Shown: piece by piece, positions 936-55,207 of the stretch
Layout: each line of letters starts with the position of its first letter
How positions within the stretch are numbered: position 1 is the first letter of the stretch
NCBI GenBank assembly: GCA_964016885.1
Contig: OZ024750.1
Location: 23,808,001-23,872,000 of the forward strand
Length of the DNA: 64,000 nt
Origin: Eledone cirrhosa
Lineage: Eukaryota
Direction: 5' to 3'
Notes under the pieces: model-generated
The model's input: the letters and a program-made list of their open reading frames with translations, nothing else
Told to the model about the DNA's origin: nothing
The model's database searches: none
Translations under genes and position numbers: made by a program

Positions 936-981
936 TAGTCATAGTCCTTTCGTCACACACTCTGTGACCTCTTCAGTGACT
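936..981 (-). ncRNA. Minimal type-I hammerhead ribozyme motif
   Basis: AGUCA-CUGAAGA-G-GUCACA(GAGUG)UGUGAC-GAAA-G(GA)C-UA-UGACU: 5-bp stem I, 6-bp stem II, 1-bp stem III, CUA triplet. Confidence 0.7.
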
Positions 982-1035
982 GGGGATTCCTTTCTTCGTT
1001 TCTGTGCCTTTCCTTTCTTCTATCCTACGCCATTT

Positions 1036-52400: not shown

Positions 52401-55207
52401 TCTCTTGGAACATTGATAAGAGTAAGATTGGTTACATTTCTACAGAGTCTTCTTGTCTTATCAGAGAGAGAGGTTCGTTTGGAAGGAATTTTAAAAGAAA
52501 ATAGATAATAGATATAATTTAATTTAGTTCCTTCCATAGGCTGAACCTTTAGAAAATTAAAAATCAATTGTCTAAAGTTTGATTTACTGAATAAACGAAA
52601 AGTAAAACTAGGCTTCCAGTTAGTTTTAATCTTTCAAGTCTCAAGTAACGTTCTTAAACAACAAGACGCCTTGGATTTGGTCTTTAAGAACGAATTATGA
52701 ATATGTCATATATATATAGGTAATTCTTCGTTTTAAAATCAAACAACTTCCGGTAATTTCCGTGAATGGAAATGACAATTTAAAAAAAAAATTTATTTCA
52801 TAAACATAATCATAATCTACACTTTCGAAAATGTATCTTTGCAAAATATACATTAGTAAGGATTACTACACATACACACACATAAAGGATCCTGCAACGT
52901 GGACGTTCAAACATTACATTCAAGGATAACAAAGTTGGATGAGAGAGGAAGGGAGGTAGACCAACTAGCTGATAGATAGACAGACAATGGGTGATTTTCA
53001 CATACACAAGCCCACAGATGTTGAAGGAGGCGGTCGGTGCAGTCTATTAAAATCGATAAGTAACTGGTACTTATTTTATCCACCACCTAGAAGCAGATTA
53101 AGCTTACATGGGGCACCTTGAAGAAATTTTCATCGAGATCCTTACATATTATTTATGGTAGCAAAAATAATTTGGGATCCCCGGTTACAACCCAGTCAGA
53201 CCACCCCTGAAACCGCAACTGCACAGAAGGGGAGGGGGGGGGTAGTCTAATAACTTCTTAACGTGCTATAATTTAGCAGAAAATATCTAAAAGCAGATTT
53301 GTTAATTCAAATATTTATAGTATCTTTACTAGTGGAAATCTGCAGTGTCAAGGACTTAAGTTCTTAATGTGAGCGCAGTCATAGTACTGTCTTGTACTTT
53401 TGAACCATGTCTCGCTAATGTGGTTTCACGTGGTACAGGACATTAAGAGCTAAATCAACTCCAGTACTTGGCTGCTCCTTATATTTTATCGCCCCCGCCC
53501 GAAAGGGCGAAAGTCAAAGCTGGCCAACCAACATGTAGGTATGACACCTAACAATAAATATTGACAATGTAAATTGTTTAAGAAGAATCAATAGACAAAA
53601 CAAATTATATTAGAATATACTAATTAAATTATTAAAGAATAATTAGTGACGTAGACAGATATATACAAATTTCTAACTGTAATTTTGAGGATTAAAAAAT
53701 ATATTCAACAAATCATCTCCTCCCCCGCCACATATATATTTATAGTAAAAGGCCAACCGTTGAGGAAATAACACCACACGCCCGGCCGGTCCCTGTATAA
53801 AGAAAAGTAAACCTTTTCCAAATTTAAAGTTTTTTTAATAATATTTCATTGTTTTTTTAGGTTTACCTTCTGAGGAGCTCAGGCTGTCATAACGGATTGT
53901 CCTCAGCGAAATGTACATTACGGATTTTAATAAAACCATTGATTTATAAAAATCCGTAATGTACATTTCGCTGAGGACTATCCGTTACGACAGCCTGAGC
54001 TCCTCAGAAGGTAAACCTAAAAAACAATGAAATATATATATATATATATATATATATATATAGGAGAAAGAGAGAGATTAATGTTACTGATGTAGATGTA
54101 TTAAATTCCGTTAGCTAGTATATAAAATTCACATATGTGAGGTAAGTAGATTTATCAAGATAGCAATTTGATGTAAATGTAACAAGGAATGGTAATAATC
54201 ACACAGATGTCTTCTTGTAAAGGATTCTAGAGAAATGTAACCCCATAGTTACTACACATCGTTAAAGATTTCGTCCTGAAAGGACGGATAAGGGACATAT
54301 GGATCACTCCTCGGAAGCATGTATGTTATTTAACGAAGCTTTAATAAATCTTCATGCATGTGGGGTGACTCGTTGGCAGCTATGTAAGAGAGAGAGAGAT
54401 GGGCGGTAAAATGTTGATAAGAGGAATCATCATCATCGTAAACTGCGAAACCATCAAACACCAGTTGTGAACAGAGCAGAGCCAACGAAGGAGCCCTCTC
54501 TATGTGGTCACTCGATCTGGTAGAAATAGCAATCAAATCTTCCTTATATCATCTTTAAAAAAAAAAAAGAAAAAAAAATCGAGGTGGGACATATTGAATA
54601 ATGTAGTCGTGGATATGTAATACACGAGAACATTACAGGGTGGTCATGCCTGGAATACCTTTGCGCACAGTTCTGATCCATTGGAACTGATTAAGGACTA
54701 AATAACAATACAGGGTGAACAAGCAATATGTTTTCGTCAGTGTAAGATCGTAGCAGCATGTATTAATAGTACAACAAACCACTCTCACAGCGTTACGGTG
54801 GGTGAAGTTAACATTCAACAGAATGAACAGCTCTGAAGGATGGGAATCAAACAGATTGAGATAGCTAACCATAACGAAAACAAGACAACTGTTGTATTAA
54901 CACAATAACAAGAACTTAATGTGACAAATCACGATATAAATATGCGAAAATATTGAGGTTTGAAAAGCATTCAATCAATGAGAATTAAGATTAATTAACG
55001 TAAATGTTTAGATAATGAGTGGAGAGTACATATTTATCTGCAACTTGTACGTAGCTGGCAAGAAACAGAAGCTAAACTGTGTGAAAGTTGATAGTTGAGA
55101 CGGTGAAAAGTTGCTAAATAAAAGGCAAGAGTCATTGAAAAAAATGTCAAGCTCACCAGGTCCACAACATCCTCAGCTTTATCCATTAATTCCTGCTGTC
55201 GCGGCAT
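33983..55207 (-). CDS. SURF4: Surfeit locus protein 4 (ER cargo receptor, Erv29 family), complete, 4 exons, 270 aa
   Basis: Exons 55207-55157 ([17 protein letters not shown]), 37270-37007 ([29 protein letters not shown]...), 35588-35545 ([14 protein letters not shown]), 34436-33983 (NLALAGG...[38 protein letters not shown]). Phases are consistent and there is a C-terminal dilysine ER-retrieval motif. Confidence 0.97.
35545..35588 (-). CDS. SURF4: SURF4 exon 3
   Basis: 44 nt, [15 protein letters not shown]. Confidence 0.93.
36620..36839. mobile_element. piggyBac-type MITE (about 200-220 bp), representative copy
   Basis: TTAA|CCCTTTAGCATTTA...TAAATGCTAAAGGG|TTAA. Other copies at about 9694-9923, 15304-15511, 25294-25499, 27790-27992, 39121-39305, 39809-40003, 42124-42277, 42654-42800, 44903-45105, 47111-47305, 50170-50366. 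Confidence 0.85.
37007..37270 (-). CDS. SURF4: SURF4 exon 2
   Basis: 264 nt, phase 0/0, [17 protein letters not shown]. Confidence 0.95.
39809..40003. mobile_element. piggyBac-type MITE nested in an older repeat
   Basis: Perfect TTAA TSDs at 39805 and 40004; the host repeat is seen uninterrupted at about 27075-27135. Confidence 0.85.
40701..40820 (-). pseudogene. 5S: 5S rRNA pseudogene
   Basis: Reverse complement CCATATCATGTTGAAAACACCTGTTCTTATCTGATCACTGAAATTAAGCAATG...GGTAGTACTTAGATAAGTGACCGC...GGTGCCGTAAGC is colinear with metazoan 5S over about 120 nt; CpG decay; single copy. Confidence 0.85.
43845..44010. repeat. 41-bp tandem repeat x4
   Basis: TACCAAACTGTACACTACACTACAATATATTATTACTATAA. 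Confidence 0.9.
46554..46800 (+). mobile_element. Penelope-like element RT (thumb region) fragment
   Basis: [48 protein letters not shown] matches the PLE motif S.HP.H.K.SIPYSQFLRL.R.CS....F......M...F..RGYP. Confidence 0.8.
48990..49340 (-). mobile_element. Restriction-like-endonuclease (CRE-like) non-LTR retrotransposon 3' fragment
   Basis: Minus strand reads [24 protein letters not shown] ... [24 protein letters not shown] ... [19 protein letters not shown], matching decayed RPDG..WD.TC / KY / P.AVET.G / QRGNA motifs. Confidence 0.7.
50787..50905. repeat. Foldback palindrome (same family as 18519-18631, opposite orientation)
   Basis: CGACGGCTGAGCTCTGGCCGTCTCAACAGCTAGAT / ATCTAGCTGTTGAAATGGCCGGAGCTCAG; the flank 50905-50985 matches 18445-18520 in reverse. 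Confidence 0.8.
53866..53923 (+). ncRNA. Minimal hammerhead ribozyme motif, left arm of foldback
   Basis: CCUU-CUGAGGA-GCUCAGG...CCUCAGC-GAAA-U(GUAC)A-UU-ACGG. Confidence 0.6.
53954..54011 (-). ncRNA. Minimal hammerhead ribozyme motif, right arm of foldback
   Basis: Inverted copy with intact CUGAGGA/GAAA core and extended stem II (CUGUC/GAUAG). Confidence 0.6.
55157..55207 (-). CDS. SURF4: SURF4 exon 1
   Basis: ATG...[17 protein letters not shown]|gtgagc; resembles the SURF4 N-terminus. Confidence 0.88.

Follow-up and report, generated by a model that had tools for sequence, protein, structure and literature searches.

Among Penelope-like elements (PLEs) that carry an endonuclease (EN+ PLEs), those of the Hydra clade are described as having a CxCX5C linker, CxxC and CxH motifs near the end of the protein and no CCHH motif, together with hammerhead ribozymes and insertion into (TA)n (PMC8557442). 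EN+ PLEs are also described there as accompanied by an inverted, 5'-truncated copy and by a tail on one side only. In vitro, a PLE protein was shown to cut both strands and to begin reverse transcription from two internal positions, one at either end of the tail, with uncut RNA as template (PMC11167929). Pairs of hammerhead motifs on opposite strands, 100-700 bp apart, have been ascribed to truncated PLEs (PMC4209133), and transcription of Penelope starts in the upstream pseudo long terminal repeat (pLTR; PMC2377424). How the head-to-head repeats of PLEs form, and what the hammerhead does, are listed as unanswered in PMC8557442, PMC3846280 and PMC11167929. Here we report on hammerhead-bearing palindromes in 64,000 nucleotides of Eledone cirrhosa DNA (contig OZ024750.1, positions 23,808,001 to 23,872,000 of the forward strand; this whole stretch is hereafter the window), a repeat-rich part of a 3.0-Gb animal assembly. 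We consider it probable that seven of the eight palindromes studied are truncated PLE ends lodged in (TA)n, and that the head-to-head pairs arise from two separate reverse transcription events, primed at both ends of a cut, starting at fixed sites on uncut RNA and often running off its capped 5' end.

Self-BLAST placed the eight palindromes of the original prediction where it had put them (55-595, 18519-18631, 18705-19039, 19191-19567, 23745-23851, 23915-24130, 50787-50905 and 53841-54035), and a motif scan of the window recovered all five of its CUGANGA...GAAA motifs. A hammerhead descriptor requiring stems I-III, with at least 4 bp in stem I, gave five matches in the window against 0.6 +/- 0.7 in 40 shuffles; two of the predicted hammerheads (936-981 and 19242-19303) pass it, but the other three (21903-21940, 23779-23816 and 53866-54011) have a broken stem I in the window copy. 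A stricter descriptor was run on a sample of 120 stretches of 10 kb (1.2 Mb), picked irrespective of content, of which 20 adjoin the window; it yielded 81 matches, compared with 3-6 in four shuffles. Some 20 sequence families are represented among the 81, and several of them have U3-A8 cores or a stem II of 50-70 nt. Rfam returned no hammerhead among its 113 matches on the window at E <= 5, because its models miss these variants. Within the same sample, (TA)5 lies no more than 40 nt from at least one side of 51 of the 95 palindromes (12.2 expected), and on one side only in 47. The pattern of palindromes and hammerheads is real and genome-wide, and we accept both the TA targeting and the reliance on a PLE reverse transcriptase (RT) that had been proposed for it.

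Parts of the earlier description need revision. The palindromes had been assigned to mutually unrelated families, but 18705-19039 belongs to the same family as 936-981, and 18519-18631, 50787-50905 and 23915-24130 have one ribozyme half and tail in common. These last three, which contain no CUGANGA, hold the 3' half of a larger hammerhead that had been overlooked. Nor are the ribozymes always in palindromes, since self-BLAST finds 936-981 and 21903-21940 in no long one. The elements, sorted into families A, B and D to G, are as follows.

717-1245 (right end approximate), minus strand: single stump of family A, a 5'-truncated 3' untranslated region (UTR) with a 54-nt tail and no inverted partner; 97% identical over 717-1115 to the 3' end of the family A copy at locus L222.
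930-985, minus strand: minimal type I hammerhead of family A, with CUGAAGA, an extra G, a 5-bp stem II, a 2-bp stem III, a CUA site and a 5-bp stem I.
18446-18631, tailed arm on the minus strand (18446-18574), tail-less arm on the plus strand (18570-18631): head-to-head pair of family G, with the 3' half of the hammerhead only.
18702-19086, tail-less arm minus, tailed arm plus: head-to-head pair of an older subfamily of A, 79-82% identical to the A reference.
19109-19560, tailed arm minus (tail of about 90 nt, 19109-19197), tail-less arm plus: head-to-head pair of family B, with an intact hammerhead on the minus arm (19248-19297) and one core change on the plus arm.
23745-23917, tail-less arm minus, tailed arm plus: head-to-head pair of family D, with the core at 23792-23814 on the minus arm and the 5' strand of stem I lost at the junction.
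23927-24118, both strands: family F pair of two tail-less arms cut within stem II; in the complete ribozyme of the family the core is U3-A8 and stem III has 5 bp.
50787-50983, tail-less arm minus, tailed arm plus: head-to-head pair of family G, both arms of which stop at the family's 5' boundary (-41 and -39), with the boundary A near 50847.
53751-54035, both strands: family E, a short, older PLE-like end in an atypical tail-to-tail palindrome, with the same stem I change in both arms.

In the A pair at 18702-19086 the junction falls inside the ribozyme, so that neither arm has a whole core. At 18446-19631 and 23733-24130, stumps from different PLE families are stacked within one TA tract, with short TA runs between them.

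Each palindrome arm was used as a query against the whole genome, and the matching loci were then read. The original prediction had looked to BLAST of the arms for PLE parents, and the arms of A, B, D and F do run upstream into PLE reading frames. Young copies of family A are 98-100% alike and have a fixed 3' end; the longer ones enter an open reading frame (ORF) with an RT (YVDD), a CX4CxxC linker, a GIY-YIG endonuclease (EN) and CCHH-type residues. The copy at L222 is nearly full-length, and there, for family A only, RT is followed by GIY-YIG in one ORF, broken by stops and frameshifts. Upstream of this ORF lies a partial direct copy, or tandem pLTR, whose ATG and 54-nt tail are in frame with it (one copy, family A only). 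This upstream pLTR (L222:6079-7037) is only 87% like the element's own 3' end, and the tandem may join two subfamilies. Pfam, run on seven proteins, gave RVT_1 in one (family A, E 2e-4), below the cut-off. The CX2-5CxxC linker, the CCHH residues and the C-terminal EN are those of the Neptune clade, and by these motifs family A looks like a young Neptune-like PLE.

Longer copies of B, D and F enter endonuclease frames that have CxCX5C and CxxC in all three families and CxH in B and F; in the D copy CxH has been lost with a frameshift. The copies retrieved reach EN and the upstream flank, not RT in the same copy, and the endonucleases of B and F are 37% identical. An ORF survey found no long transposon ORF in the 64-kb window, and several long fetched stretches, as well as locus L223, contained no full-length element. 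On their motifs B, D and F resemble Hydra-like PLEs. The ribozyme half and tail of G are about 75% like those of F, which makes G a relative of F, likely of PLE origin. Judged by sequence, then, the palindromes of A, B, D and F are truncated PLE ends, and those of G and E are likely to be so too.

This bears on the original prediction, which saw an independent population of non-coding, snap-back, retrozyme-like elements copied as palindromes by a PLE RT. Certain observations agree with it: no linked ORF was found for G or for E in 30 loci each of about 3 kb, nor a parent ORF for family C (an old repeat described below) in 11 loci of similar length; the 5' end of family E, a family with a tail, is nearly fixed, and E may be non-autonomous. 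Elsewhere in the genome there are true tandem arrays of retrozyme type, as at L306:8749-9720 (near 280.0 Mb on contig C3), where units of about 311 nt repeat head to tail, every one with a whole hammerhead, alongside an inverted copy. However, self-BLAST detects no head-to-tail tandem units with whole hammerheads among the window elements, parents were found for A, B, D and F, whose stumps are truncated ends of autonomous PLEs, and most F/G stumps retain one half of the ribozyme only (its 3' half has 59,005 exact matches, the core of one subfamily 1,402). In addition, the junctions of F and G are distinct in 36 of 36 cases; the palindrome is therefore made anew each time, and its replication as a unit is ruled out. 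We regard an independent population of this kind as very improbable.

To examine how pairs form we used 127 head-to-head pairs, both 3' ends of which lie at a family end, drawn from all loci, the 1.2-Mb sample and the window; many come from loci chosen by the arm queries, and two of these (L144 and L145) look duplicated. The 3' ends are fixed, with two sites per family. One tailed and one tail-less arm make up 123 of the pairs, which thus show the 5' truncation, inverted copy and one-sided tail of EN+ PLEs; none has two tails, and four have two tail-less arms (one of them cut by the end of the locus). Among the 123, the tail-less arm is longer by more than 15 nt in 32 and the tailed arm in 24, and in 67 the lengths differ by no more than 15 nt.

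These counts speak to the possibility that the inverted arm is made by self-priming, through fold-back of the first cDNA or of an antisense RNA. Small palindromes occur at many junctions, the arms of 67 pairs are of near-equal length, the two arms of a pair have private changes in common (as in the E copy of the window), and the tail-to-tail E copy may itself be a true fold-back; self-priming of antisense RNA has moreover been proposed for rotifer PLEs (PMC3846280). Against this, in 32 pairs it is the tail-less arm that extends further 5', although the tail is on its partner, so that neither arm copies the other; the reverse is seen in 24. The 32 pairs are not fold-backs, because a fold-back copy must lie within the strand copied, and the snap-back origin previously suggested for the arms already fails for these non-nested pairs. 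The second arm also stops exactly at the family's second site, and the extra G described below stands at the 5' end of the sense strand. As a cause common to all families, fold-back triggered by ribozyme structure is ruled out, since the 5' boundaries of A, B and E lie upstream of the ribozyme. Overall, self-priming seems to us a rather improbable source of the second arm. Priming at both ends of a break fits the arm counts, which a single fold-back cannot explain, and parallels the twin priming of L1.

The ribozymes themselves are of type I and of the Penelope kind, as predicted. Those of A, B, D and E are minimal, with a stem III of 1-2 bp, mostly palindromic, and folding as a monomer is predicted not to occur. 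The F ribozyme combines UUGAAAA (a U3-A8 core) and GUC with a long stem II, a stem III of 5 bp that bears a palindromic loop, and an extended stem I; its predicted fold is whole as a monomer (pair probabilities 0.84-0.99); that of G is similar with CUGAGGA, and its stem I misfolds in the one copy folded. The CUGANGA/GAAA/NUH core, three stems and the 3-8 pair were found in family copies of A, B, D, E, F and G, and were incomplete in the window copies of C, D and E and in an F subfamily with C3-A8. Within family E the 3-8 pair covaries (UUGAGAA in 12 of 30 copies, CUGAGGA in seven, U-G intermediates in three). As a candidate for a ribozyme split end to end, the F 5' half was cofolded with an RNA starting at the boundary; stem I formed but stems II and III did not, which gives the idea no support. 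In the stumps the hammerhead is likely a passenger of the pLTR; its predicted substrate is the tandem transcript of a full element. Most copies of a family with half-ribozyme stumps or U3-A8 cores escape screens for hammerheads.

In G, F and A the stumps have a sharp 5' boundary with a non-native G. Of the 43 F/G arms in the 1.2-Mb sample, 31 have their end at a position from -45 to -20 relative to the cleavage site. Over the whole genome the A at -40 is reached by 3,787 exact G copies, and about 1% pass it (39 continue into GATTN); only 13 have the whole core (16 matches less three junctions). Where a TA tract is joined to this boundary A, the first 100 of 164 G-family matches show no extra base in 57, G in 30, C in eight, A in four and T in one, and at a control position four bases downstream G occurs in 0 of 74 (p 1e-8). 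Among the TA-joined ends of family F (first 100 of 829 matches), 16 have G, against one of the first 100 of 248 for the control (p 1.5e-4). The G is seldom the native base, one of 39 and none of 13 extended G-family copies having it there. Family A has TA + G + (AC)n at seven independent loci among 47 distinct places (first 100 of 256 matches), just upstream of what we take to be a YY1-like motif. The boundary A stands in the context TC-A-GTT or TT-A-GTY, which resembles an initiator. The boundaries of A, B and E precede the ribozyme core by 60-125 nt; that of A is about 105 nt upstream of the cleavage site. Copies that start at the F cleavage site number only 12 (nine with another pattern), with no pile-up, and copies exist that read through it.

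The boundary and its extra G likely mark run-off at a capped RNA start, which in F and G would lie inside the ribozyme; an RT that copies the cap, or adds C at a capped end, gives such a G. Alternatively, the boundary could be a stall of the RT at the top of the long stem II, or a nuclease cut there, the G being a non-templated base. The F/G boundary does coincide with the top of stem II, and family B has a boundary without the G. Yet it would account neither for the position of the boundary in A, B and E, so far upstream of the core, nor for a 99% drop within 5 nt and a G at one position only, nor for the initiator-like context of the boundary A. We therefore judge a stall or cut unlikely, though less so than self-priming of the second arm. 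We found no published account of such a boundary or extra G in Penelope elements in the paper listings and text passages searched, and passages of PMC6431247 and PMC12910113 did not treat the matter; papers behind subscription, and the supplements to PMC8557442 and to PMC11167929, lay outside this search and may bear on it.

Under two-end priming, the GIY-YIG endonuclease would cut both strands in (TA)n, and reverse transcription would start at two sites bounding the tail, as for the anole element in vitro. Because the tail would be the start of the ORF (in L222 it is in frame from the ATG of the upstream pLTR), these sites would lie near the 5' end of the mRNA; most cDNAs would be short run-offs to the cap, that is, solo pLTRs, and microhomology would then join the two cDNAs to each other, or one cDNA to the TA tract. 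There is, in our estimate, an about even chance that the tens of thousands of stumps form a fossil record of the mRNA start, with the dimer-dependent minimal families starting upstream of the ribozyme and F/G starting inside stem II. The 5' ribozyme copy of an F/G mRNA would therefore be without its core, born lacking the CUGANGA half and unable to cut itself, and the 3' copy would be whole. If this is true, the ribozyme is switched off by the position of the promoter, and the mRNA start would decide between antisense self-priming and sense-template replication of PLEs.

A number of observations weigh against these interpretations or limit them. In the sample, 65 of the 95 palindromes matched neither the family references nor the core motif. 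The F subfamily CUGAGAA breaks the 3-8 pair (C3-A8) in 23 of the first 100 of 1,402 matches, with no C3-G8 among the matches listed. Arms are nested or equal in 91 of the 123 pairs, so that fold-back is possible for each of these singly, and the likeness between the two arms of a pair exceeds that between arms taken from different pairs (0.90 vs 0.75 in 30 pairs), a result that suits both models. The window copies of E and F are themselves irregular, one being tail-to-tail and the other having two tail-less arms, and for G, E and C no ORF was found in the loci read. As to the boundary, 8 of the 43 F/G arms in the sample pass it and four stop short of it, and most TA-joined ends have no extra base (65 of the first 100 in F, besides the 57 given for G). 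Family B gave no extra-G signal (2 of 55, and one match in a further pattern search), the TA-joined ends of D are mixed and E gave two matches only. Finally, the pattern used for the F cleavage site spans fewer subfamilies than that used for the F TA-joined ends.

Two further elements are as follows.

66-584, no strand assigned: family H, symmetric terminal inverted repeats (TIRs) and no ribozyme; both arms end alike, and the internal junction is common to copies.
21879-21942, minus strand: family C, an old decayed hammerhead-like repeat with a broken stem I and no palindrome; 11 matches at 78-87%.

The palindrome at 56-594 had been listed as part of the hammerhead-bearing system, but the structural hammerhead descriptor has no match there, and its ends are the TIRs of a DNA transposon, an outcome that the original prediction had itself named as telling against it, albeit with a TA duplication where 9 bp is seen here. 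Among 29 paired copies the target duplication is an exact 9 bp in 11 and 8 bp in two, and seven more, in pure TA, are compatible with 9; the others give no clear length. A loose core pattern matched 28 of the 29 H copies, and was taken as chance since the structural descriptor had no match in 56-594. Miniature inverted-repeat transposable elements (MITEs) of Mutator-like elements (MULEs) have long symmetric TIRs starting with G and a mostly 9-bp duplication, and 66-584 is like them in both respects. It is likely a Mutator-type MITE unrelated to PLEs. That all the palindromes are DNA-transposon MITEs or assembly artefacts is scarcely credible: true as the former is of 66-584, the others have one-sided tails and variable centres and lead into PLE ORFs, and for seven of the eight palindromes this explanation is already refuted. 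For 18519-18631, an artefact, raised earlier as a possibility, is also at odds with public-run contigs, one in each of two runs (one sample, which may be the assembled one), that cross its centre with no mismatch. Contigs representing a small share of a public RNA run covered none of the window's elements.

Other features of the window include a hammerhead motif outside the original list.

37747-37796, plus strand: further hammerhead motif, found with the stem I-III descriptor, upstream of a (TA)23 tract.

Two further palindromes are present, of which 10724-11286 consists of two opposite copies of an abundant repeat and 24134-24229 was seen at this place only. Decayed hammerhead-like repeats also lie at 18240-18340 (plus strand; 24 BLAST rows in fetched DNA, some of them inverted pairs) and 51400-51520 (plus strand). 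Exon-like frames of a membrane protein, ending in a dilysine motif, occur at 33983-34462 and 36929-37297 (both minus strand), and presumably encode a Surf4/Erv29-type protein. There are decayed copies of U2 snRNA (14264-14457, plus strand; Rfam 82.8 bits) and 5S rRNA (40703-40821, minus strand; 60.9 bits).

Among known systems, family A is like the Neptune clade in RT followed by GIY-YIG, the CX2-5CxxC linker, CCHH-type residues and a bias to microsatellites (PMC8557442); the linker of Nematis is similar, and A is placed by motifs, not phylogeny. Non-LTR retrozymes (Li et al. 2026, 10.64898/2026.07.22.740005) have in common with the window elements a type I hammerhead and an origin in PLE pLTRs, but consist of units arrayed in tandem, head to tail, each with its own ribozyme, whereas the window elements are single or head-to-head. 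The hammerheads of PMC4209133 are alike in a palindromic stem III of 1-2 bp, an extra base between 9 and 10.1, and U3-A8 covariation; those of F and G differ in being predicted to fold as monomers and in being split by the 5' boundary. PAc, a Poseidon element of Anolis carolinensis (Frangieh et al. 2024, PMC11167929), is alike in its two RT start sites bounding the tail, the cutting of two strands, the uncut RNA template and a tail that falls within the start of the ORF; the results on PAc were obtained in vitro, and the portions considered report no genomic 5' boundaries, extra G or arm-length statistics. The closest likeness of B, D and F (and of G by kinship) is to the Hydra clade (Craig et al. 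2021, PMC8557442), in linker, hammerheads, (TA)n, inverted copy and one-sided tail. Tails here are about 60-90 nt, compared with 30-40 bp in Naiads, and B has a 1.5-kb 3' UTR; in F and G stem II is long and stem III has 5 bp, and the core of F is U3-A8, although the supplements of that paper, outside this comparison, may hold these families. Earlier publications cover the layout, the targeting of TA and hammerheads of the minimal or U3-A8 kind. What may be new are the arm statistics and the boundary with an extra G in G, F and A, through which this genome adds large-number evidence for two independent primings on an uncut, probably capped sense RNA.

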